Of a stretch of DNA of 12,702 bases, positions 1-12,702 are shown one piece after another. The notes under the pieces are model-generated. The model made no database searches and was not told the origin of the DNA. It worked only from the letters and a program-made list of their open reading frames with translations. Where the stretch lies: the IMG/VR virus record IMGVR_UViG_2563366971_000008, one strand, 5' to 3'. The stretch is from a virus. Lineage: Duplodnaviria > Heunggongvirae > Uroviricota > Caudoviricetes. The first letter of the stretch is position 1. The number at the start of each line of letters is the position of its first letter. The position numbers and the translations under genes are program-made.

Positions 1-1698
1 CTATACTTTAAAGAACTTATTTGTCGAAGATAACTCAAGGATCGAGTTACTCATCATCATTTTCATGTCCGCATCTTCTGAAAACTTATCACTTAATATT
101 GACACAATATATTGACCATTTATATTATTTGCTTCAAAAAATATATCTCTAATTTGATTCACATCGACATCTTCAATGCTATCATGAATAACAAAAGTAG
201 GTCTCTTTAATTTAATCTTATCCACAAACTTAATATAAGCCAAATCAAATGCAGTTATTTCACCTTTCTTCTTGCCGCCATTACTGTTTGGTGTAACGCA
301 TGATATATCAAAATTACACTTACCTTTATCAACATCAAAGGAAAGATCAAAAATGTATCTTTCCCCATATATTTCCTTTGTAAGATCACCAAAAAACTCA
401 TTGAAAATCTCGATGTTTTTTTCCAGACCTTGAACTGCTAACTCTATTTCTAAAAGTAATTTCTCTCGACTATCTTCAAGAGATTTTATGAGGGCATTTG
501 TATCATTAATACGCGAAAGATTAGACTCTATGCTAGCAAGATTTTCACGTAATTCAGTAAGCTTATTAAATAATTGATTTATAGACTTTAATGTTTCAGG
601 TTCTTTGATTGTTCTAAATAGGGATGATTCTTGTTCATGAAGATCATTGATTTTTTTATTTACAGTTTCTATTTCTTCTTTTTTCTTTAACAATTCAGAT
701 TCTAAAAAACTGATTTTATTCTTAATAATATCATTATGGAACAATACCATTTCTTCGTAAGTCCTTTTAAGTTCCCCATTAAAATAAATCCCCGCAGAAT
801 TATATATTTCCATTAAATCATTTTCTACAAGTTGTATGATATTATTCTTCAAGGACAAGATCGATTCTTCGATATTTCTTACTCGCATATTTAAGGAGGC
901 ATAGCTCAAAGAATAATCACTGATATTCTTCTGTATTTCTGAAAGCTTTTTTAAGCTTTCATCATGACTATCTTTAAAATCGAAGTTCTTAATATTTCTT
1001 TCCGCCTCTGCAATTTCTTTCTTCAGAGGCTTAATCATTTTTGCTAAAACAGTCTCTCTATTTGGATTCCTGTATGCGGCAAGATATGTCTTTTGTTTTT
1101 TTATCACTTTGTTAAAATCACCTTTTTTCTTTATCAGAGGTAGCCCATTGAACCCAAATAAAAACAAGTATAATAGATCATAGACATCAGGAGTCGTATT
1201 CCCATGTAAGAAATTAAGCGTTTTCTGCATTTTATCATTCGTGTTTCTAATAAATTTATGCGAAACATTCCTCAGTGATGGCTTATCTGTAGTTAACCCA
1301 AACACTGCTTGAGCTATAAATTCAGAATATTGTTTCTTATCTACTTCAACATCATTTAAAAAATATTTTGAATTTTTATCATCAATAGATATTATACGTG
1401 AAATAACTGCCTTTTTATTTTCTACCGTATTGAAATCCAATGAAAATTTCAAAACATTATTATTAATTAACGATACAATTTCAGGTATATCTTTTCCAAA
1501 CTCTGCATCATGATAAATATCATGACCTGATGACATAAATAAATAATCTAAAACACGCGATAATGTGGATTTACCTACACTATTGCCGCTATCTTTGCCT
1601 GATGTTCTTTTATTTACAATTAGATTCAGACCGTCTTTAAACGTCACCTCTCTTACAAGAGAGTCATTTTTTAAAATAATAAGTTTATTGAGCCTCAT
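1..1698 (-). CDS. SMC/ABC-type P-loop ATPase with central coiled coil (565 aa); candidate defence ATPase
   Basis: Complete ORF with ATG at 1698-1696 and stop at 3-1. N-terminus reads like an SMC/RecF head, with Walker A SGNSVGKST around residues 37-45. Residues about 200-440 are K/E/L-rich and heptad-like. C-terminus has a signature-like SNGG and a Walker B-like TFVIHD around residues 501-506. A GGTGGA Shine-Dalgarno sits upstream. Confidence 0.8.
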   Translation of the reverse strand: MRLNKLIILKNDSLVREVTFKDGLNLIVNKRTSGKDSGNSVGKSTLSRVLDYLFMSSGHDIYHDAEFGKDIPEIVSLINNNVLKFSLDFNTVENKKAVISRIISIDDKNSKYFLNDVEVDKKQYSEFIAQAVFGLTTDKPSLRNVSHKFIRNTNDKMQKTLNFLHGNTTPDVYDLLYLFLFGFNGLPLIKKKGDFNKVIKKQKTYLAAYRNPNRETVLAKMIKPLKKEIAEAERNIKNFDFKDSHDESLKKLSEIQKNISDYSLSYASLNMRVRNIEESILSLKNNIIQLVENDLMEIYNSAGIYFNGELKRTYEEMVLFHNDIIKNKISFLESELLKKKEEIETVNKKINDLHEQESSLFRTIKEPETLKSINQLFNKLTELRENLASIESNLSRINDTNALIKSLEDSREKLLLEIELAVQGLEKNIEIFNEFFGDLTKEIYGERYIFDLSFDVDKGKCNFDISCVTPNSNGGKKKGEITAFDLAYIKFVDKIKLKRPTFVIHDSIEDVDVNQIRDIFFEANNINGQYIVSILSDKFSEDADMKMMMSNSILELSSTNKFFKV

Positions 1699-1904
1699 AT
1701 ACTATTCCACCATTTCCATCTAACTCAATTGCGCCGATTATGAAAAGCCAATCTAATTAGTAAAGAAAAAGATCAAACGATAACTCGAAGATAGAATTTA
1801 CTAAATCATACAATCGAGATATTTCAATGACCATTGAATCATTACTTTGAAAGATCCTAAGCACTACACTTCCAATATATACAGGATTTGCTTTTGGATC
1901 CGTA
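1699..1904 (-). promoter_or_regulatory. 206-bp AT-rich spacer inside the cassette with a candidate internal sigma70-like promoter for the ATPase gene
   Basis: On the minus strand, TTTACT, a 17-nt spacer, then ATAATC lies about 30 nt upstream of the ATPase ATG. The gap is unusually long for an operon. This is motif inspection only. Confidence 0.25.
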
Positions 1905-2453
1905 TCAATTGTAATCATTTGGATTCTCCAGCACTATACATTCGATAATAGCATAGCTAACAATCATACGAATGCCATAATCAATATCTTCCTGTAAAAA
2001 CTCTGAATCTAAATTAGAACACGAACTAACTGTTTCTTGAGCAGCTCTAATAACATCATCTATAATATTATCCGAGTTTTTCCTTATGAGTTCAATGTTA
2101 AATGGTTTCTCATAAAGACCATATAATCCCAATGCAGTATTATAATAACCTCTAAACTGTCTTTTCAATTTGACACTACCATTTAAAATTATAGCATCAA
2201 GTGTTTTTATGGATTCATCAACTAGCAGAGCATCTTCTTTATAAAGTTCAGCTACCCATCTGTTTCTTTTAAGATCATTGAATTCTATTTTAACATCAAT
2301 ATTTGATGCTATTCTGTTTAAGTTTTGCTCGCTACCAACTGAATTAGAAATAATTTCAATTAACTTACCAATAACACTGGCTCTTAACATTCTTGGCTGG
2401 TTGTTTATATGCACAGGACCAGTATTATTATTGAAATTAACACCAGAACCCAT
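1905..2453 (-). CDS. hypothetical protein (182 aa), middle gene of the cargo cassette
   Basis: ORF with ATG at 2453-2451, preceded by a GGGGG Shine-Dalgarno formed by the last codons of the upstream gene (stop-TT-ATG coupling). No catalytic motif recognised; few His/Cys. Same strand and AT-rich composition as its neighbours. Confidence 0.7.
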   Translation of the reverse strand: MGSGVNFNNNTGPVHINNQPRMLRASVIGKLIEIISNSVGSEQNLNRIASNIDVKIEFNDLKRNRWVAELYKEDALLVDESIKTLDAIILNGSVKLKRQFRGYYNTALGLYGLYEKPFNIELIRKNSDNIIDDVIRAAQETVSSCSNLDSEFLQEDIDYGIRMIVSYAIIECIVLENPNDYN

Positions 2454-2455
2454 AA

Positions 2456-2728
2456 TTACCCCCGATTATCAATATTCACAGGACCATTATTATCTTGAAA
2501 ATATTGAGAACGCGCTCCTTGATTAATGAAGTTTCTATTAGTTGTAATTTTTACAATCTGGGAATTAAGATCATTTATTGTAATGTTAAGTTGTTTTATC
2601 TCATTATCTTTCTTGGTTACTTGCATAGTCTGATATATTGCTATACATCCAGAGATCACCCCAACAATATATCCAAAGGCACTTACATATTCGTTAGCAA
2701 GTAGTGATGCAATCATTTGGAGCTCCAT
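2456..2728 (-). CDS. small single-pass membrane protein (90 aa; possibly 86 aa from the second ATG at 2716)
   Basis: The ORF carries a hydrophobic stretch VSAFGYIVGVISGCIAIY (about residues 15-32) followed by a charged helical tail. The internal ATG at 2716 has a better Shine-Dalgarno (GGAG, 6-nt spacer) than the first ATG. First gene of the cassette. Confidence 0.6.
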   Translation of the reverse strand: MELQMIASLLANEYVSAFGYIVGVISGCIAIYQTMQVTKKDNEIKQLNITINDLNSQIVKITTNRNFINQGARSQYFQDNNGPVNIDNRG

Positions 2729-2985: not shown

Positions 2986-3004
2986 GTGCTTTCCCCGCCT
3001 CGCC
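2986..3004 (-). other. P2/P4-type cos site (19-nt cohesive-end core)
   Basis: Minus strand reads GGCGAGGCGGGGAAAGCAC, which I recall as the P2/P4 cohesive-end sequence. It lies just downstream of psu, as in P4. Confidence 0.6.
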
Positions 3005-3027
3005 CGCCCGCTTTGTGGGGCGGTTTT
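3004..3027 (+). terminator. GC hairpin plus T-run next to cos
   Basis: CCGCCC, loop GCTTTGTG, GGGCGG, then TTTT. It overlaps the cos-flanking sequence, so the function is uncertain. Confidence 0.3.
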
Positions 3028-3105
3028 AATGCAGTTGTACTGACACGCTCAGACTGCGCCGGGAATGGCGCGGTCTGCAGAAAATGAGGCAGGGAAACGC
3101 ATGCA

Positions 3106-3138
3106 AAGCCATGCACCTTATCGATGCATGGCTTTTTT
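3106..3138 (+). terminator. rho-independent terminator-like hairpin between cos and psu
   Basis: Perfect 10-bp stem AAGCCATGCA / TGCATGGCTT with a 9-nt loop, followed by TTTTTT on the plus strand. An A-run precedes it on the minus strand, so it may act in both directions, including for the psu transcript. Confidence 0.5.
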
Positions 3139-3168
3139 CAGTAAAAACGGGCGGATTTTCGGGGAATT

Positions 3169-3741
3169 TTACACAGACTGACGTGATGCCAGTTGCGCAC
3201 TTTTACGCGAAAAAATCATGTTCTGCGCAGGGGTGAATTTTTCACGGCTGTCATCCACCGAAGCCGCGTCAGGCCTGAATCCGATGGTCGTTAAAATGTC
3301 GCTATCCTGTGCGGAATAATTAATTTTTTCCCCCTTCGCAAGCCAGGACAGAAGGGCTTCACGCAGGGCATCTGTGGCACGCTGTATGGCACAGTTTCGG
3401 GCAATGGCCGTCAGCTCACTGTAGCCCATCAGCTCCGGTGCCAGTGCGGCCGCCAGTGCTGTGCCGTGCTGCTGCATAAAATCATTCAGCCGGTCGCGGA
3501 TGCTGATGTGCTGAACGGCTTCATGCGAACGAATATAACGACCGGCAGCCTGATTCACCTGCCATTTTCTGACTTCGATAATATTGCGTAATTCGTCCAG
3601 GCGACTGACGTTTCTGCCTTCCCCTGACAGAAGCCGCAGATATTCCTGTTCGGCCGCAGCCAGCTCATTTTTGCGTTGCAGCCATGCTGCTTTGTTATTC
3701 TGACAGGTGTCAAAGGCCTGCTGTAAGGCTGTGCTTTCCAT
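3169..3741 (-). CDS. psu: Psu-like polarity suppression / capsid decoration protein (190 aa)
   Basis: 190 aa, the same length as P4 Psu, and last gene of the sid-delta-psu block next to cos. N-terminus MESTALQQAF matches my recollection of P4 Psu. Confidence 0.85.
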   Translation of the reverse strand: MESTALQQAFDTCQNNKAAWLQRKNELAAAEQEYLRLLSGEGRNVSRLDELRNIIEVRKWQVNQAAGRYIRSHEAVQHISIRDRLNDFMQQHGTALAAALAPELMGYSELTAIARNCAIQRATDALREALLSWLAKGEKINYSAQDSDILTTIGFRPDAASVDDSREKFTPAQNMIFSRKSAQLASRQSV

Positions 3742-3814
3742 CGTTATCTCTTTCTCATCATGCTGAAGAATAAAAATACGGTGTGCGGCGACGGCCGGTG
3801 TTAACCGGCAGCCC

Positions 3815-4315
3815 TCATTCCAGACGCAGCGAATATGATTGTGTTTTTAAGCGTACTGGCGGCAGTTCCTGTTTTTCATGCAGGCTTTCTGCCAGTTCGT
3901 CCGGCGTGACCGGGCGGACAATAAAACGGTTGATGGTCTGAAGCGTTTTAAACACCAGACCACATCCCGGATCCGTGCACACATAAAAACGCTCGGTGAC
4001 TTCCTGAGACAGACGCCGCGATGTTCTTGACAGTGCAAGGCCTTTACATCTCCGACAACAATATCCGGTAACAAGCATTCTTTTCGGGCGTTTCATACTG
4101 CCGGAGGCTGACGTCAGTGAATCGCGGTATCTCTGTTTGCCTGAAATGTATTCCATTCCTGAATCTTTACTGTCAGAGAAAAAGCTTTCACTCGCTTCAA
4201 ATGTCGCAGAGCAATAAATATTCCGGCACTGTGCAATCATTATCTTGGTGCCATCGTCCATGAAATGTGCGCGGCGGGTGTGAGCAACATGTCCACACGA
4301 CGGGCAGTAAATCAT
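3815..4315 (-). CDS. delta: Delta-like late transcription activator (166 aa, tandem Ogr-type zinc finger)
   Basis: Two Ogr-like Cys motifs (CPSCGH...CRNIYC and CRRCKG...CTDPGC). 166 aa equals P4 Delta. Its ATG overlaps the sid stop (ATGA), as in P4. Confidence 0.85.
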   Translation of the reverse strand: MIYCPSCGHVAHTRRAHFMDDGTKIMIAQCRNIYCSATFEASESFFSDSKDSGMEYISGKQRYRDSLTSASGSMKRPKRMLVTGYCCRRCKGLALSRTSRRLSQEVTERFYVCTDPGCGLVFKTLQTINRFIVRPVTPDELAESLHEKQELPPVRLKTQSYSLRLE

Positions 4316-5064
4316 GACAGCACTCCTCTGGCCTTAAGCACTGCTCCCTGCTGGTCTATTTTGTCCTGCCACACCTTGCGCTGTGCCGGTGTGCCTGCCA
4401 CCTCATAATCCATGTGAGGAAGTGTTGCCGCTGACAGTCCGGTCAGCCGGAGAACCGGCTCGCCGGTGAGGCTGATTTGCATCTGTTTAATTTTCTGTTC
4501 CAGCGATGATTTCACCTGCTGCATGACAGCCTTTTCCGGTGCGACGTAGCCCTGATGGCCGGTGGTGTTGGCGAGCGGATTTTCCTGTACCAGAATGCTC
4601 AGATGCATTGCCCGGACAAGCGCCTCACAGGTTTCATTCAGGGCGTGTTCCAGCTCATGCTCTGCATACAGACTCAGAAGGTGATGATGTGCCTTCCGGT
4701 AGGCGGTGGCCGTGCTGTCACACGCCCCTTTCAGGCGTTCACGTTCGAAATTCAGCACCACGGCCAGATTGTCATATTCCTGTACCAGCTCCCGGCGTGC
4801 CACGCGCTCAATGTGGCGCTGTTTCAGCTCGTCGCTCAGGACACCACCGGCTGCACGAAAGGCCGTGCGCCAGTCGTCAGCGTCGTTTCCGTCGGCCTGC
4901 GCCAGCGCATTTTTTTCCTGCTCTGCCCGTTCAATGGCCGTGACGGTCTCATCCATCAGGCGGGCGTTCTCAAGATGGGCGGCTCTGGCCTTTTCCAGTT
5001 GTGCCAGCGCGGGTTGCAGATATTCAGGGATGGTGTTGTCAGACATTTTCCGGCTCCTCGTCAC
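4312..5064 (-). CDS. sid: Sid-like external scaffold / capsid size determination protein (250 aa)
   Basis: Position upstream of delta with translational coupling. Size is close to P4 Sid (about 244 aa). Alanine- and glutamate-rich helical protein. Confidence 0.8.
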   Translation of the reverse strand: MTRSRKMSDNTIPEYLQPALAQLEKARAAHLENARLMDETVTAIERAEQEKNALAQADGNDADDWRTAFRAAGGVLSDELKQRHIERVARRELVQEYDNLAVVLNFERERLKGACDSTATAYRKAHHHLLSLYAEHELEHALNETCEALVRAMHLSILVQENPLANTTGHQGYVAPEKAVMQQVKSSLEQKIKQMQISLTGEPVLRLTGLSAATLPHMDYEVAGTPAQRKVWQDKIDQQGAVLKARGVLS

Positions 5065-5080
5065 TTCAGGTTAAGAAAAT

Positions 5081-5136
5081 TGTGACGTACACCGGACAAC
5101 AACACGACGCATTGCAGATGTGCCAGCCCTGACACA
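5081..5136. promoter_or_regulatory. two TGT-N12-ACA dyads upstream of sid (candidate Ogr/Delta activator sites, Psid-like late promoter)
   Basis: TGT-N12-ACA at 5081-5098 and 5119-5136. This is the P2/P4 late-promoter activator dyad architecture, located just upstream of the sid start. Confidence 0.35.
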
Positions 5137-5214
5137 GGAGACTCATCCTCACACCGGCAAGCCAGGAAAAGGTCGCAGGAAAAACCGGCTTACTGTTTGT
5201 TTTTTATATTTTAC

Positions 5215-5318
5215 TGTTCACCTCTGTTCACCTTAATAAAAAAGATAATTAATACAGTAAGTTAAAGGGTGAACAATCGCAGTAATGACTGTTCACCGTC
5301 TGTTCACCACTGTTCACC
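5215..5318. repeat. iteron cluster: five direct and one inverted copy of TGTTCACC (P4 ori-like alpha-binding sites)
   Basis: TGTTCACC at 5215, 5225, 5290, 5301 and 5311, mostly at 10-11 bp spacing, with an inverted copy at 5268-5275. TGTTCACC is the P4 type I iteron bound by alpha. Confidence 0.6.
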
Positions 5319-5422
5319 CGTTCATGGACTTTTTGTGCTGTTTATTACTTTTTATTTTTATTAATTCGCCGGGAATGAATAAGAAAAAACGATTTGTATT
5401 TCACTATAAAAATTACGAATTG

Positions 5423-5452
5423 CTTTAAGTGGCTTTAAATGACTTTAAGTGG
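5423..5452 (+). promoter_or_regulatory. three tandem 10-bp repeats (CTTTAAGTGG / CTTTAAATGA / CTTTAAGTGG) upstream of the alpA-like gene
   Basis: Exact head-to-tail 10-bp periodicity about 145 bp upstream of the early-gene start. Candidate operator or early-promoter element. Confidence 0.4.
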
Positions 5453-5597
5453 AGATGAACAAAAAACACACAAGCATTATAAGACTGCCGGAACAAATCC
5501 CCCCTGTTGCGTCTGCTGAAAATATTCACAAAATAAAGCGCTACCCGAAGCCGGACGGACTTATCCGGTGCTGTATGGACATTAACGAGGTAGCCCG

Positions 5598-5864
5598 ATG
5601 CAAGCTGTTTTTTCTTCCCCGTCTCCCGCCCCTGTGACGCCACTGATGCCGCTGCCGGACATCACGCAGGAGCGTTTTTTACGTCTGCCGGAAGTGATGC
5701 ACCTGTGCGGCCTGTCACGCTCGACCATCTATGAACTCATCCGTAAGGGGGAATTTCCGCCGCAGGTGAGTCTTGGCGGTAAAAATGTGGCCTGGCTGCA
5801 CTCTGAAGTCACTGCATGGATGGCCGGGCGCATTGCCGGACGCAAACGGGGGTACGACGCATGA
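5598..5864 (+). CDS. alpA: AlpA-family (P4 orf88/Vis-like) helix-turn-helix transcriptional regulator (88 aa)
   Basis: 88 aa with the characteristic LRLPEV...[17 protein letters not shown] helix-turn-helix. GAGG Shine-Dalgarno 7 nt upstream of the ATG. Confidence 0.85.
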
Positions 5865-6262
5865 TGATGCCCGCTCTGCAAAAACTCCCTTTTTCTGGCT
5901 TGCCTTTTTCCGGCATTTGCGGATATAGTTTTTCCGCTGCCGCAAAATCGGCAGCCGGGCGTGGAAACCCGAGCAATTCACAGGCGACATATGACGCGCC
6001 ATGCGTCTTTTTTTGTGTCGCAATCAACGCCACAGAGCGCCAGATTATGGTGTGGTGTGTGGTCAGTCGTGCAGATGGCATTCCGTGCATCCTGCCCGCG
6101 TCCGCTCATTATGCCGCAGAGTCAATGGTAGCTCAGGCGGGGCAGCCTCCGGGCTGGCCGGTATCCTGTGAAGCCGGTATTTCCACCCCCGTCTGGGCTA
6201 TCGCCATCGAGCGTGGAAACTCCGGCGATAGCGTTATTTGCTATTCACAGGAGGCTGCCATC

Positions 6263-6460
6263 ATGGCTACAACCCTTACCCCCTCACACCCTGAATTTGT
6301 CTTTGTGTTTGCGGCTGTCCGTCGCACAGACCGTCATCCCCGTATCTGTATGCTTCGCACCGTCGCCGGTGATGAACGCAGTGCCCGCCGTTCCCTTGTC
6401 CGTGACTATGTGCTCTCCCTTGCTGCCCGTCTGCCGGTGGTGGAGGTGTCCCGTGCGTAA
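6263..6460 (+). CDS. hypothetical small protein (65 aa); start uncertain
   Basis: ATG at 6263 with GGAGG 8 nt upstream. The frame stays open upstream to 5816, but that part looks non-coding (low complexity, Cys/Trp-rich). Confidence 0.3.
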
Positions 6461-6740
6461 TAAAAAAGCCCCTCAGACCGTCTCAGCGCGTCATGACGCC
6501 CGTGAACACCTCAGCATTGAGGCTTACCATAAGCTCAACCGCGCCAGCGCCGTATCCCAGTTTGTTGGGGGTGATTTGATTCACCGTGAACTCTCCGGCC
6601 TGCATCAGCTCTACATTCCGCATATTTTCAGTTACCTGAATGAAGATATTGATTTTGTGCTGAATGAGCTGAAAGCCAAAGGCCTGTGCCGCGATTTTCT
6701 CGCCCAGCAGAAAGACCGGGGAGACAGGACGCATGTTTGA
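6453..6740 (+). CDS. small protein (95 aa), positional equivalent of P4 epsilon (derepression protein)
   Basis: GTG start at 6453 with GGAGG 6 nt upstream. It overlaps the previous stop and the next start. Size and position between the orf88-like and orf151-like genes match P4 eps; the sequence itself was not verified. Confidence 0.5.
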
Positions 6741-7188
6741 TTTTCCCCAGCCCGGTGAGATTTACCGTTCTGCCGGTTTTCCCGATGTGGCCGTGGTCGG
6801 CATTCTGGAAGACGGTATTCCGTGGGAAATGCCGTACCGCTGCCCGGACATTGTCTGGAACCCGTACCGCCGTAAATTCAGTATCCTTGTGCGTATCCTC
6901 GCTGACGGGCGCACCACAGACATCCCGCTGGGGCGTTTTCTGCGGGAATTTACCTGTGACCGTCCTGACCTGTTCAGACGCAGCCCCGTAAACCGGCATG
7001 CGGTACTGAAAGAAATGGCCGGAGACCCGGAATTACAGAAATGGCGGGAGAAATATCTGGATATTTACCCGCAGGACCCTGTTCCGGTCAGCCGGGCGGC
7101 ACCGGTGGCGCGGGAATGGCGGGAAATTCCCCGCACGGAGCCTGACCCGGAAATCACACCGGATAACAGTTACCGCAATTATCTGTAA
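6733..7188 (+). CDS. P4 orf151-like protein (151 aa)
   Basis: ATG overlaps the upstream stop (ATGTTTGA). 151 aa, same as P4 orf151, in the conserved position before orf106 and alpha. Confidence 0.7.
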   Translation: MFDFPQPGEIYRSAGFPDVAVVGILEDGIPWEMPYRCPDIVWNPYRRKFSILVRILADGRTTDIPLGRFLREFTCDRPDLFRRSPVNRHAVLKEMAGDPELQKWREKYLDIYPQDPVPVSRAAPVAREWREIPRTEPDPEITPDNSYRNYL

Positions 7189-7323
7189 TTAAAAAACGAC
7201 ACCCGAAAAATTAAATGTGCGTATTCGCGCAGGGATACGCACGTCTTCAGGAGACGCAGATATGCCTTATCAGTTAATGCAACCGGCACGGAATGCAGTC
7301 ATCTGTCACAGGGAGGAAAGCAA

Positions 7324-7644
7324 ATGAAAACACCCTTACCGCCCGTCTTACGCGCTGCCCTTTACCGTCGCGCTGTCGCCTGTGCCTGGCTGACCGTGTG
7401 CGAACGTCAGCACCGCTACCCGCATCTCACCCTTGAATCACTGGAGGCGGCCATCGCCGCTGAGCTGGAAGGCTTTTATCTGCGCCAGCACGGTGAGGAA
7501 AAAGGGCGTCAGATAGCCTGTGCCCTGCTGGAAGATTTAATGGAATCCGGCCCCCTGAAGGCCGCGCCGTCGCTGTCCTTTCTCGGGCTGGTTGTGATGG
7601 ATGAACTCTGTGCCCGTCACATAAAAGCGCCGGTACTGCACTGA
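7324..7644 (+). CDS. P4 orf106-like protein (106 aa)
   Basis: Strong Shine-Dalgarno GGGAGGA upstream of the ATG. 106 aa, immediately upstream of alpha as in P4. Confidence 0.7.
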
Positions 7645-7658
7645 AGGAGAACAACACC

Positions 7659-8624
7659 ATGAAAATGAACGTAACCGCCACCGTCAGCCATGCGCTCGGC
7701 CACTGGCCGCGTATCCTCCCGGCGCTGGGGATTCAGGTGCTGAAAAACCGTCATCAGCCCTGTCCGGTCTGTGGCGGGAGTGACCGCTTCCGTTTTGATG
7801 ACAGGGAGGGGCGCGGCACCTGGTACTGCAATCAGTGTGGTGCCGGTGACGGCCTGAAACTGGTTGAAAAGGTGTTTGGTGTCTCCCCGTCCGACGCGGC
7901 CACAAAGGTGGCTGCCGTGACCGGCAGCCTGCCCCCGGCTGACCCGGCAGTGACGGCCGCCGCCGGTGCTGAAACAGACGCTGCCCGGAAGAACGCCGCC
8001 GCACTGGCACAAACCCTGATGGCGAAAACCCGTCCCGGAACCGGTAACGCCTACCTGACCCGCAAGGGCTTTCCCGGCCGGGAATGCCGGATGCTGACCG
8101 GCACACACAGAGCCGGTGGCGTGAGCTGGCGTGCCGGTGACCTTGTGGTGCCACTGTATGACGACAGCGGCGAACTGGTTAACCTTCAGTTAATCAGTGC
8201 TGACGGCCGTAAGCGCACCCTGAAAGGCGGACAGGTCAGGGGCACCTGTCACACCCTTGAAGGACAGAATCAGGCCGGAAAACGTCTGTGGATAGCGGAG
8301 GGATACGCGACCGCACTTACCGTGCATCACCTGACCGGTGAAACGGTGATGGTGGCGCTTTCTTCCGTGAATCTCCTTTCTCTGGCCAGCCTTGCCCGGC
8401 AGAAGCATCCGGCCTGTCAGATTGTCCTTGCTGCTGACCGTGACCTCAGCGGTGACGGCCAGAAAAAAGCCGCCGCAGCCGCAGATGCGTGTGAAGGTGT
8501 GTTGCCCTGCCGCCGGTCTTCGGTGACTGGAATGATGCCTTCACGCAGTACGGCGGGGAAGCCACCCGTAAGGCCATTTATGATGCCATCCGGCCACCGG
8601 CTGAAAGCCCGTTCGACACCATGA
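7659..8624 (+). CDS. alpha: alpha primase-helicase, N-terminal fragment (zinc-binding primase/TOPRIM part), interrupted by a frameshift
   Basis: AAGGAGA Shine-Dalgarno. CPVCGG...CNQCG zinc motif, then EGYATA and AADRD TOPRIM-like motifs. After about residue 280 the translation becomes Arg/Pro/Ser-rich nonsense, while the protein-like sequence continues in another frame. Confidence 0.8.
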   Translation: MKMNVTATVSHALGHWPRILPALGIQVLKNRHQPCPVCGGSDRFRFDDREGRGTWYCNQCGAGDGLKLVEKVFGVSPSDAATKVAAVTGSLPPADPAVTAAAGAETDAARKNAAALAQTLMAKTRPGTGNAYLTRKGFPGRECRMLTGTHRAGGVSWRAGDLVVPLYDDSGELVNLQLISADGRKRTLKGGQVRGTCHTLEGQNQAGKRLWIAEGYATALTVHHLTGETVMVALSSVNLLSLASLARQKHPACQIVLAADRDLSGDGQKKAAAAADACEGVLPCRRSSVTGMMPSRSTAGKPPVRPFMMPSGHRLKARSTP

Positions 8625-9991
8625 GCGAAGCGGAGTTTTCCGCCATGAGTACCAGCGAAAAGGCCATGCGTATCTATGAGCATTACGGCGAGGCGCTCGC
8701 GGTTGATGCCAACGGCCAGCTTCTGTCCCGTTATGAAAATGGTGTCTGGAAGGTGCTGCCACCACAGGACTTTGCCCGGGATGTGGCCGGGCTGTTTCAG
8801 CGGCTGCGCGCGCCGTTCTCCTCCGGGAAGGTGGCCTCCGTGGTGGACACCCTGAAGCTGATTATTCCGCAGCAGGAAGCCCCCTCCCGCCGCCTGATTG
8901 GCTTTCGTAACGGCGTGCTCGACACGCAGAACGGCACGTTCCACCCGCACAGTCCGTCACACTGGATGCGCACCCTGTGCGATGTGGATTTCACCCCACC
9001 GGTGGAAGGGGAAACGCTGGAAACCCACGCCCCCGCGTTCTGGCGCTGGCTTGACCGTGCCGCCGGTGGCCGTGCGGAAAAACGCGACGTGATTCTGGCC
9101 GCACTGTTTATGGTGCTGGCAAACCGCTATGACTGGCAGCTCTTTCTGGAGGTGACCGGTCCCGGCGGCAGCGGCAAAAGTATCATGGCCGAAATAGCCA
9201 CCCTGCTGGCCGGGGAGGATAACGCCACGTCGGCCACCATTGAGACGCTGGAATCCCCGCGTGAACGTGCCGCGTTAACTGGCTTCTCACTGATACGCCT
9301 GCCGGACCAGGAAAAATGGAGCGGCGACGGTGCCGGACTCAAGGCCATCACCGGCGGCGATGCGGTGTCCGTGGACCCGAAATACCGGGATGCGTACTCC
9401 ACGCATATCCCGGCGGTGATTCTGGCCGTGAACAATAACCCGATGCGCTTCACCGACCGCAGCGGCGGCGTGTCACGCCGGCGGGTGATTATTCACTTCC
9501 CGGAACAGATAGCCCCGCAGGAGCGCGACCCGCAGCTTAAGGACAAAATCACCCGCGAGCTGGCGGTCATCGTGCGTCACCTGATGCAGAAGTTCAGCGA
9601 CCCGATGCTCGCCCGGTCACTGCTTCAGTCCCAGCAGAACTCAGACGAGGCACTGAACATCAAACGGGATGCCGACCCGACGTTTGATTTTATCGGCTAT
9701 CTGGAAACCCTGCCGCAGACCAGCGGCATGTATATGGGGAACGCCAGTATCATCCCGCGTAACTACCGTAAATACCTCTATCACGCCTATCTGGCCTACA
9801 TGGAGGCAAACGGCTACCGGAATGTACTCAGTCTGAAAATGTTCGGGCTGGGGCTGCCGGTGATGCTGAAGGAATACGGGCTGAATTACGAGAAGCGCCA
9901 TACCAAACAGGGGATACAGACCAACCTGACGCTGAAAGAGGAAAGCTACGGCGACTGGCTGCCAAAATGTGACGACCCTGCAACAACCTGA
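8495..9991 (+). CDS. alpha: alpha primase-helicase, C-terminal fragment (helicase with Walker A GPGGSGKS, plus C-terminal DNA-binding part)
   Basis: This frame is open from 8495 (first ATG at 8621) and reads VALPPVFGDWNDAFTQYGGEATRKAIYDAIRPP before the listed ORF. The two fragments sum to 777 aa, the length of P4 alpha. Confidence 0.8.
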   Translation, partial: RCVALPPVFGDWNDAFTQYGGEATRKAIYDAIRPPAESPFDTMSEAEFSAMSTSEKAMRIYEHYGEALAVDANGQLLSRYENGVWKVLPPQDFARDVAGLFQRLRAPFSSGKVASVVDTLKLIIPQQEAPSRRLIGFRNGVLDTQNGTFHPHSPSHWMRTLCDVDFTPPVEGETLETHAPAFWRWLDRAAGGRAEKRDVILAALFMVLANRYDWQLFLEVTGPGGSGKSIMAEIATLLAGEDNATSATIETLESPRERAALTGFSLIRLPDQEKWSGDGAGLKAITGGDAVSVDPKYRDAYSTHIPAVILAVNNNPMRFTDRSGGVSRRRVIIHFPEQIAPQERDPQLKDKITRELAVIVRHLMQKFSDPMLARSLLQSQQNSDEALNIKRDADPTFDFIGYLETLPQTSGMYMGNASIIPRNYRKYLYHAYLAYMEANGYRNVLSLKMFGLGLPVMLKEYGLNYEKRHTKQGIQTNLTLKEESYGDWLPKCDDPATT

Positions 9992-10007
9992 CCATCATGA
10001 CTCATCT

Positions 10008-10032
10008 GACCGGCATCTGCCGGTCTTTTTTT
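10008..10032 (+). terminator. rho-independent terminator after alpha
   Basis: GACCGGCA / TGCCGGTC stem followed by TTTTTTT, 17 nt after the alpha stop. Confidence 0.5.
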
Positions 10033-10050
10033 ATCCCTGAATTCCCCGAA

Positions 10051-10142
10051 GGTGAACAATCCACTGTTCACCCTTCACCCATTATTCACCACCTATCACT
10101 CTGAAATAAAAGGAGAAAATCAAAGAGTGAACAGTGTGAACA
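10051..10142. repeat. crr-like iteron cluster (direct and inverted TGTTCACC-related octamers) downstream of alpha
   Basis: GGTGAACA at 10051, TGTTCACC at 10065, and 7/8 matches at 10083, 10127 and 10135. Placement downstream of alpha matches the P4 cis replication region. Confidence 0.55.
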
Positions 10143-10438
10143 GTTCTTTCGAAAAAAAATTTTTTTCCTGTACGATATAGCATCAATCCAAGTAAAAATG
10201 CGCTTTCATTTCACATTAACTTACAGCCATTGGTATACGATTAGGTATACGCACAAAAACTGAATTAAATAAAATCGTTAAAAATCAAAGCGATACAATA
10301 TTTATTCAAACTCCGCCAGCACGGTGTAAGGACTACACCAACAAAAACAGGAAGTTATAAGTCTCAGAAGGACACCGACCAGACGGTGAGGAGACAAAAA
10401 AGGATACGCAACGGAGTCGCGACTCCCTATGACATTAA

Positions 10439-11988: not shown

Positions 11989-12702
11989 ATGTATGATTTT
12001 GTGATTATTGGCGGCGGCATCATCGGCATGTCGACCGCCATGCAACTGATTGATGTTTATCCGGATGCCCGCATTGCGTTGCTGGAAAAAGAGTCCGGCC
12101 CGGCCTGTCACCAGACGGGCCACAACAGCGGCGTGATCCATGCCGGAGTCTATTACACGCCCGGCAGCCTGAAGGCGCAGTTTTGCCTGGCGGGGAACCG
12201 TGCCACTAAAGTCTTTTGCGATCAAAACGGCATTCGCTACGACAACTGCGGCAAGATGCTGGTCGCCACGTCTGAACTCGAAATGGAACGGATGAATGCG
12301 TTATGGAAACGCACGGCGGCAAACGGAATCGAGCGCGAGTGGTTAAACGCCGAGGAGCTGCGCGAGCGTGAACCGAATATCACCGGGCTTGGCGGCATTT
12401 TTGTGCCGTCCAGCGGCATTGTCAGCTACCGCGAAGTGACGGCGGCGATGGCAAAAATCTTCCAGGCCAGAGGTGGTGAGATTATTTATAACGCCGAAGT
12501 CAGCGCCCTCAGTGAGCATAAAAACGGCGTGGTGATACGTACCCGTCAGGGCGGTGAATATGAAGCATCGACGCTGATTAGCTGTTCCGGGCTGATGGCT
12601 GACCGGCAAGGTGAATACGTACTCTGCGGGCATGGGGCTGATGCCGGGTCATGTTTATCGCGCGCTTTATCCTTGCCCGCTGCACGGCATAAGCGAGGAT
12701 GA
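11989..12702 (+). CDS. lhgO: L-2-hydroxyglutarate oxidase LhgO (YgaF), 5' partial; runs off the window
   Basis: ATG at 11989 with AAGGAA 8 nt upstream. N-terminal FAD-binding motif MYDFVIIGGGIIG. The listed ORF start at 11923 lies inside csiD and is not the real start. Confidence 0.85.
   Translation: MYDFVIIGGGIIGMSTAMQLIDVYPDARIALLEKESGPACHQTGHNSGVIHAGVYYTPGSLKAQFCLAGNRATKVFCDQNGIRYDNCGKMLVATSELEMERMNALWKRTAANGIEREWLNAEELREREPNITGLGGIFVPSSGIVSYREVTAAMAKIFQARGGEIIYNAEVSALSEHKNGVVIRTRQGGEYEASTLISCSGLMADRQGEYVLCGHGADAGSCLSRALSLPAARHKRG

Follow-up and report, generated by a model that had tools for sequence, protein, structure and literature searches.

A 1-nt deletion splits alpha, the primase-helicase gene of an Escherichia coli P4-like satellite prophage

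Phage P4 gp-alpha (NP_042036.1, 777 aa) combines primase, SF3 helicase and origin-binding activities in one protein. By contrast, in the P4-like satellite prophage found in our window (the whole 12,702-nt stretch of DNA that was analysed) no unbroken chain of ~777 aa carries all three activities, and two ORFs of 321 and 456 residues stand in its place. Is this split real, and has alpha function been lost with it? The initial annotation had attributed the split either to a sequencing error or to an inactivating mutation and had pictured the satellite, in the latter case, as replication-defective and domesticated, yet in possession of an intact cargo cassette.

Alignment to P4 alpha, which that annotation had proposed as the way to find an indel, indeed revealed a gene one base short, with 2333 nt here compared to 2334 nt both in P4 and in those E. 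coli copies that are otherwise the same. The nucleotide identity to P4 alpha is 98.2% across the entire gene, and the repaired allele matches P4 alpha at 769 of 776 amino acids. Global alignment with two intact copies (L003 and L004) contains a single gap, GGTG-T-GTTGCC here and GGTG-TT-GTTGCC in the intact copies, whereby GGTGTTGTTGCC in the latter corresponds to GGTGTGTTGCC in the window. The missing T, which the alignment places after window base 8499/8500 (that is, at 8500/8501), falls inside the range (8492–8505) to which the frameshift had been assigned, and it belonged to a TT pair rather than to any long homopolymer. Because codon 281 changes from GTT to GTG, V281 is retained by chance, and the frame is shifted from there on. 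The split alpha is an ordinary, recent pseudogene, and its frameshift is already flagged in RefSeq, where PGAP labels the identical alpha sequence of E. coli N24 a "frameshifted" pseudogene. The gene and the lesion are located as follows.

7659–9991, plus strand: primase-helicase gene alpha of the P4-like satellite prophage, broken by the loss of one nucleotide
8499–8501, plus strand: deletion site, one T of a TT pair missing by global alignment with intact copies

The deletion leaves the two ORFs and the short signals between them in the following arrangement.

7659–8624, plus strand: ORF1, 321 aa, comprising 281 native residues and then 40 out-of-frame residues up to the TGA at 8622–8624
8492–8494, plus strand: TGA that closes the native downstream (-1) frame, seen in the codon view
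8621–9991, plus strand: ORF2, 456 aa when started at M322 and 448 aa when started at M330 (position 8645)
8621–8624, plus strand: ATGA, in which the ORF1 stop overlaps the start of ORF2, as read off the sequence
8632–8635, plus strand: GGAG, putative Shine-Dalgarno-like motif 9 nt 5' of the ATG at 8645

The N-terminal ORF had been described as turning to nonsense after about residue 280 and the protein-like sequence as resuming in another frame from 8495, and both descriptions hold: ORF1 is native up to V281, and the native (-1) frame, closed upstream by the TGA, is open only from 8495 on. In the ORF listing we found no ATG, GTG or TTG start in the native frame upstream of 8621. Since there is no start codon between 8495 and 8620, native residues 282–321 (8495–8620) are encoded in neither ORF1 nor ORF2. 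Gene callers place the ORF2 start at 8645 or, in Logan, at 8621. The ATGA overlap could permit termination-reinitiation coupling, and the ATG at 8621 has no Shine-Dalgarno sequence ahead of it. The observation that the fragments sum to 777 aa, the size of P4 alpha, is numerically right (321 + 456) but does not indicate a clean split, and we rejected it as such a sign: the two ORFs overlap by 4 nt, so that 2333 + 4 gives 2337 nt, or 779 codons, which less two stops leaves 777, and 40 of these residues are nonsense. The match is an arithmetic coincidence.

To locate the break within the protein, we mapped domains onto the two products. ORF1 contains the zinc ribbon (Zn_Ribbon_Prim, PF08273; residues 30–66, E = 6.9e-19), the N-terminal primase subdomain and the TOPRIM domain as far as helix α3, with the TOPRIM motifs EGYATA (E214) and DxD (D260-R-D262) in frame. 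The Pfam Toprim_3 match, which spans residues 210–299 in the intact protein, is cut at 280 in ORF1 and covers only profile positions 2–69 of 95. As the initial set of homologues was all at least 77% identical and too close to assess motif conservation, we used 109 representatives clustered at 50% identity. Among these, E214 is conserved in 109/109, D260 in 108/109 and D262 in 101/107. Beyond the break, P285 is conserved in 100/109, and a D-[WF]-[ND]-D motif, at D290 (98/99), W/F291 (96/98), N/D292 (93/98) and D293 (96/98), is as well conserved across the family (~98%) as E214 and D260. An AF2 model based on 57 diverse sequences (pLDDT 86.9; an earlier run on a shallow alignment of sequences 67–82% identical to the query gave an unusable pLDDT of 43.9) predicts β3 at 254–258, α3 at 266–277, β4 at 281–283 and α4 at 291–311, followed by a low-confidence linker at 311–320, immediately ahead of ORF2. 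In structural comparison this model matches the cores of the T7 gp4 primase and of DnaG best. When the N-terminal 321 residues were searched against PDB sequences, only zinc-ribbon noise was returned (ribosomal L37Ae, E ≥ 0.058), and no TOPRIM alignment covered the DWND motif. The break thus falls inside a DnaG/T7-type primase domain, between TOPRIM helix α3 and strand β4. The N-terminal product lacks β4, α4 and the family-wide D-[WF]-[ND]-D motif (residues 281–311), and no ORF in the window contains a complete TOPRIM fold with these elements. ORF2, on the other hand, carries a complete D5_N domain, SF3 P-loop helicase and C-terminal winged-helix origin-binding domain (Pfam matches D5_N at 15–146, DUF5906 at 179–287 and Pox_D5 at 349–448), and alpha residues 671–770 are identical to the P4 origin-binding domain in PDB 1ka8.

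The commonest assembly error is a single-base indel, and just one complete RefSeq genome shows this deletion; it could therefore be asked whether the true genome encodes an intact 777-aa alpha. The distribution of the allele effectively refutes this. Across NCBI, ENA and Logan, 33 contigs (44 index blocks; accessions include E. coli KTE126 and KTE47) encode precisely this 321-aa product, and 172 the intact allele. We compared four assemblies, namely two Broad KTE drafts (GCA_000351425.1, to which the window is identical, and GCA_000408685.1), the complete 2025 RefSeq genome N24 and Logan SRR32862262, and all carry the same deletion. These derive from different data and assemblers, including independent SRA runs, and the deletion is thus not confined to one assembly or platform. 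All four copies can be told apart by other variants; the last three differ from one another elsewhere by a SNP or a 2.6-kb deletion and hence represent distinct isolates. The sister strains N17 and MS20657 encode an intact 777-aa alpha; over ~20 kb the frameshifted copy from a KTE assembly (L005) is set apart from them by the indel together with 2 SNPs (N17) or 6 SNPs (MS20657), and over the 12.6 kb of the element the missing base is the sole difference from N17. The allele's occurrence in no fewer than four distinct isolates, and on 33 contigs from collections that range from the KTE assemblies to a far more recent SRA run, means that the host does not strongly select against it. Restoration of full-length alpha by programmed -1 ribosomal frameshifting or transcriptional slippage is very unlikely. 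From 8495 as far as the ORF1 stop the native frame is open, which would provide a 130-nt window for such a shift, but a slippery-site scan of 8480–8622 found neither an X XXY YYZ heptamer nor a homopolymer run, and ancestrally the gene was one plain ORF. Moreover, the two-frame layout is not conserved: of 1004 complete E. coli genomes having the segment, a single one shows the deletion, which marks it as a lineage marker and not a hotspot or recoding signal.

The remainder of the element is that of a P4-like satellite, with the replication and packaging sites listed here.

10008–10032, plus strand: alpha terminator, hairpin GACCGGCA..CCGGTC followed by a T run, the same as t-alpha of P4 by alignment with the annotated P4 terminator
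10046–10165, no strand assigned: crr, the cis-required replication region bound by alpha, in one 120-bp copy (two copies in P4)
5215–5318, no strand assigned: ori type-I iterons, six copies of TGTTCACC with spacing as in P4
2986–3004, minus strand: cos site, identical to the cohesive-end sequence of P2/P4

Exact matches to the ori iteron number eight in the whole window, where 0.33 would be expected by chance. The P4 record terminates at the cos sequence, and window positions 3005–10167 are collinear with P4 at 98.0% identity. The core genes follow the P4 order: Psu, Ogr_Delta, a sid-length ORF, Phage_AlpA, Derepression (epsilon), the disrupted alpha and the integrase. The prophage is integrated at ssrA. 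An exact-repeat search for the att core between the ssrA and glaH sides yielded only a terminator-like 13-mer match; the core probably exists as a short, imperfect copy around window positions 10330–10345. The cargo, a DUF2326/LmuB-like ATPase with small ORFs, is intact. It resembles candidate defence systems. Apart from the deletion, cos, psu, delta, sid, the ori iterons, the regulatory genes, crr, the integrase and the cargo are all unchanged.

The satellite had been pictured as domesticated yet with this cargo intact, and one could imagine that the frameshift was selected because the host gains from locking in a satellite with defence genes. Defence hotspots are carried by P4-like satellites (PMC9122126), and this, the cargo's likeness to candidate defence systems and the 33 contigs bearing the allele, against 172 with the intact one, would fit this idea. 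However, with no further difference from N17 the lesion is too recent for the intact cargo to be informative on selection. Directed immobilisation also predicts something other than what is seen, as int, the att arm repeats, cos, delta, sid and psu are intact too, and selection is inseparable from hitch-hiking for one mutation in one clone. The label "domesticated" is thus unsupported, and adaptive domestication is improbable; there is no evidence that the frameshift is an adaptation.

A split yet working gene deserves more weight, though it too appears unlikely. Here, reinitiation at 8621 or 8645 would yield alpha 322–777 or 330–777, which would load at ori and crr while host DnaG supplies the primers. 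The completeness of the D5_N, P-loop and winged-helix domains in ORF2 is compatible with such a product, as are the ATGA overlap and the GGAG ahead of the second ATG, and the predicted linker would place the ORF2 start at a natural domain boundary. The family includes stand-alone primases of 285–450 aa, and thus primase and helicase modules can be separate genes. The 56-kDa form of T7 gp4 is a helicase-only fragment from an internal start. In work of Ziegelin et al. in 1995, primase-null alpha reportedly supported P4 replication if host DnaG was active, its primase function being essential only without it; if that is right, translated ORF2 could keep some function. ORF2 corresponds to the D5_N, SF3 and C-terminal module of the homologous poxvirus D5 residues 323–785, which form, alone, a stable hexameric ATPase with DNA-binding activity (PMC9611036). 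Yet the D5 and T7 gp4 fragments are laboratory constructs or regulated natural isoforms, while the ORF2 product is putative and would arise only via reinitiation after an accidental frameshift. Reinitiation is usually inefficient, the first candidate start lacks a Shine-Dalgarno sequence, and the split is restricted to one young lineage and absent in 1003 of the 1004 genomes, giving no sign that it was selected. A bolder form of the idea, which we regard as somewhat less likely again, is that stop-start coupling makes the locus a working two-gene module whose alpha 322/330–777 either drives DnaG-primed replication or, sitting on the ori and crr iterons, blocks incoming P4-like satellites trans-dominantly. 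Either role would be a new phenotype for the lineage.

Similar lesions are known among relatives. P4-like variants without alpha are frequent, and core genes with frameshift pseudogenes occur (Moura de Sousa and Rocha, PMC8628076). The present element resembles the Type B#02 and alpA-frameshift satellites of that study in having one core gene frameshifted and its other core components in P4 order. It differs in that its lesion is a very recent single indel in one clone, whereas the alpA pseudogenes are conserved across clades, and in that HMMs would still pick up alpha. Other truncated alpha alleles in Enterobacteria, such as those of 550 aa (95 Salmonella contigs) and 426 aa (34 contigs) and a 558-aa internal deletion, are likewise independent prophage disruptions, but these involve other positions and lesion types and none shares the deletion. 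Compared with P4 gp-alpha itself, the element has the same EGYATA, DxD, DWND and GPGGSGKS motifs, a C-terminal domain identical to PDB 1ka8 and the same ori iterons, terminator and crr; what sets it apart is the T missing at codon 281, by which a 321-aa fragment and a 456/448-aa ORF replace the 777-aa chain.

Taken together, these data make it highly probable that, in one E. coli sub-lineage, alpha of an ssrA-integrated P4-like satellite became a split pseudogene through a vertically inherited 1-nt deletion. The sequencing-error reading gives way to that of an inactivating mutation: a conserved part of the primase domain is lost, and the full-length primase-helicase-origin-binding protein cannot be made. 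Autonomous replication is probably lost as well, and it is reasonable to infer that the element is replication-defective. The primase fragment encoded by ORF1 would be inactive or misfolded, and alpha-dependent replication from ori and crr following induction would be lost or strongly reduced. In that case the prophage would be maintained by chromosomal replication and be poorly mobilisable, with its other genes still expressed. The event appears recent and may most simply have been neutral or slightly deleterious to the satellite. A point against lost function is that ORF2 retains the entire helicase/origin-binding module together with usable start signals.

Beyond correct annotation, the finding has little importance. 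A circulating extra-intestinal E. coli clone genuinely carries the split as an allele, and annotators should enter it as a pseudogene and not "repair" it; HMM-based satellite surveys would still score the element as complete. N24 (frameshifted) and N17 (intact) constitute a natural near-isogenic pair with a single-base difference over the 12.6-kb window. This pair is suited to asking whether a satellite in a wild host requires the primase domain of P4 alpha, and its covalent link to the helicase, to replicate and be mobilised.

The alpha primase-helicase gene of the P4-like satellite prophage (window 7659-9991, forward strand) is present as two overlapping open reading frames:

7659-8624, forward strand: ORF1, 321 aa
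8621-9991, forward strand: ORF2, 456 aa

The ORF1 translation is P4 alpha-like through ...AAADACEGV and thereafter becomes low-quality sequence (LPCRRSSVTGMMPSRS...); the other frame, translated from 8390, meets a TGA at 8492-8494 and then reads RCVALPPVFGDWNDAFTQYGG... on to the alpha end. The alpha stretch aligns end to end with that of phage P4 at 98.2% identity, measuring 2333 nt versus 2334 nt, and global alignment against two otherwise identical E. coli copies places a single gap at window 8499/8500, where the window has GGTGTGTTGCC in place of the GGTGTTGTTGCC of the intact genes. The TT pair in codon V281 is short of one T, so that ORF1 ends in 40 out-of-frame residues. Neither ORF encodes native residues 282-321, whose own frame lacks a start codon. 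Because the translations and alignments put one missing T at V281, the initial annotation, which had placed the split near 8492-8505 with native sequence resuming in another frame, was right in both location and description. The ORF lengths do add up to 777 aa, a coincidence arising from the 4-nt ATGA overlap.

The window is identical over its full length to scaffold KB732636.1 of NCBI assembly GCA_000351425.1. The exact 321-aa product occurs on 33 contigs in NCBI, ENA and Logan, with accessions from E. coli KTE126 and KTE47, and in 44 blocks of the position index. We compared four carriers, namely GCA_000351425.1 (the window), GCA_000408685.1, the complete RefSeq chromosome of the CSF isolate N24, whose alpha PGAP already labels "frameshifted", and the Logan assembly of SRR32862262. 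The same T is absent in all four, which are distinguishable by other variants: the Logan contig by a SNP at L006 position 8246, N24 by a SNP in the gab region, and GCA_000351425.1 by a 2,584-bp lhgO-gabT deletion not in the other three. Different isolates, read sets and assemblers thus share the missing base, which excludes sequencing error for practical purposes. Of the two readings first offered, error or inactivating mutation, it is the mutation that stands: full-length alpha cannot be made, and the primase domain is truncated in its conserved core. The lhgO-gabT deletion (window 12598-12702, junction 12607/12608) fuses the two genes across the 10-bp microhomology GCTGACCGGC, taking out the lhgO 3' end, the whole of gabD and the gabT 5' end; it is not in the intact sister strains either.

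Those sister strains, N17 and MS20657, retain an intact 777-aa alpha; apart from the indel, 2 and 6 SNPs, respectively, separate them from the frameshifted KTE copy L005 across about 20 kb. Among 1004 complete E. coli genomes with this 71-nt segment, the T is missing only in N24. Together, the intact near-identical sisters and this single occurrence indicate that the deletion is a single, recent, clonally inherited event. At a frequency of 1 in 1004 the site is neither a mutational hotspot nor conserved for recoding, and 8480-8622 contains neither an X XXY YYZ slippery heptamer nor a homopolymer run.

The repaired allele is identical to P4 alpha at 769 of 776 residues, so P4 numbering is applicable, and over residues 671-770 it matches the solved P4 origin-binding domain, 1ka8, without a difference. 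Pfam assigns the following domains to the intact protein:

residues 30-66: Zn_Ribbon_Prim
residues 210-299: Toprim_3
residues 336-467: D5_N
residues 500-608: P-loop domain (DUF5906)
residues 670-768: Pox_D5

In ORF1 the Toprim_3 match ends at residue 280, profile position 69 of 95. An AlphaFold2 model (57 diverse sequences; mean pLDDT 86.9; block means >90 over most of residues 11-310), for which structural comparison ranked the T7 gp4 primase fragment and the cores of bacterial DnaG highest, predicts these TOPRIM elements:

209-213: beta1
216-226: alpha1
230-232: beta2
236-249: alpha2
254-258: beta3
266-277: alpha3
281-283: beta4
291-311: alpha4
311-320: low-confidence linker

By these predicted boundaries the frameshift sits precisely at the junction of alpha3 and beta4, so that the TOPRIM domain loses its final strand and helix. 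In an alignment of 109 representatives, from a library clustered at 50% identity, ORF1 is seen to lack a segment with positions conserved to the same degree as the catalytic ones: P285 (100/109), D290 (98/99), W/F291 (96/98), N/D292 (93/98), D293 (96/98) and G299 (89/100), compared with E214 (109/109), D260 (108/109) and D262 (101/107). Metal binding in primases of the DnaG/T7 type also involves a third acidic motif, which follows DxD; DWND is probably this motif. With the conserved segment and the end of TOPRIM missing, the N-terminal fragment is very likely inactive or misfolded. Separately, 51 of 148 representatives from clustering at 50% identity have lengths of 285-450 aa, and for many of them the listed matches span about alpha residues 10-310. 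These look like stand-alone zinc-ribbon and TOPRIM primases; a natural end of the primase module at about residue 300-315, and split primase/helicase layouts within the family, are suggested.

The single-nucleotide deletion, by preventing synthesis of full-length alpha, would probably abolish ori/crr replication by the satellite, as the initial annotation had supposed. There would then be no amplification for packaging by a P2 helper, and the satellite would persist only as a chromosomally replicated prophage, its other genes untouched. It is improbable that the split alpha still works in part, a reading that draws on the second fragment. Primase-null alpha is reportedly defective for P4 replication only with host DnaG inactive, and primase-null and helicase-null alpha proteins are said to complement in trans. 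ORF2 contains the whole helicase and origin-binding module, and its two possible starts, M322 and the M330 chosen by gene callers, both lie directly after the predicted linker; the first ATG overlaps the ORF1 stop (ATGA), and the second, at 8645, has GGAG 9 nt upstream. In poxvirus D5 the homologous fragment, residues 323-785, is by itself a stable hexameric ATPase (PMC9611036). Loss of alpha-dependent replication remains the probable outcome.

The frameshift is the sole visible lesion in the element, which is collinear with P4 over window 3005-10167 at 98.0% identity. Features placed within the window are:

1-2728, reverse strand: variable cargo region beside the integrase, with a 565-aa DUF2326 protein and small ORFs
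2986-3004: cos site, exact
5215-5318: ori iterons, six copies
10046-10165: crr, one 120-bp copy

Also found are psu, delta, sid, the alpA-like gene, the Icd/cI-region gene, the epsilon gene, ORF151, ORF106 and the alpha terminator. P4 has two crr copies 60 bp apart, whereas this element and the intact sister elements have the one copy. Just upstream of the window are ssrA (tmRNA) and a 399-aa integrase (L005 596-958 and 1143-2342), with glaH on the other side; integration is beside ssrA, in contrast to leuX for P4. Arm repeats of the GGTATACG type lie on both sides, the window part of this region being about 10240-10345; near 10330-10345, AACTCCGCCAGC imperfectly repeats the 3' end of ssrA. 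The DUF2326 protein matches PADLOC candidate PDC-M68B (1.4e-45) and LmuB (2.7e-15), and the 182-aa, 90-aa and 53-aa cargo ORFs have no PADLOC match; the cargo, in the P4 hotspot, is probably a candidate defence system built on an SMC/ABC-type ATPase.

The further proposal of a domesticated satellite retaining an intact cargo cassette finds no support, as the missing base is the sole difference from the intact N17 copy over the shared 12.6 kb. The intact cargo, integrase, cos and hijacking genes therefore reflect only the youth of the lesion; with a single mutation in a single clone, selection cannot be separated from hitch-hiking.

Only the interrupted chain and the TOPRIM end, which is not in frame, set the gene apart from P4 alpha, and a pseudogene of the P4 alpha family is its most fitting classification. 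Among P4-like elements, those without alpha form a variant class that is frequent, and core genes are repeatedly found as frameshift pseudogenes (Moura de Sousa and Rocha, PMC8628076). A protein search found other truncated alpha alleles, independent of this lesion and widespread in Enterobacteria, including one cut to 550 aa (95 Salmonella contigs), a frameshifted one of 426 aa (34 contigs), a 558-aa alpha with an internal deletion and a 526-aa fusion. The alpha frameshift is an ordinary kind of event and already annotated, RefSeq marking this very lesion as a frameshift. Its sole practical value lies in N24 and N17, a natural pair suited to testing whether the alpha primase domain is required.
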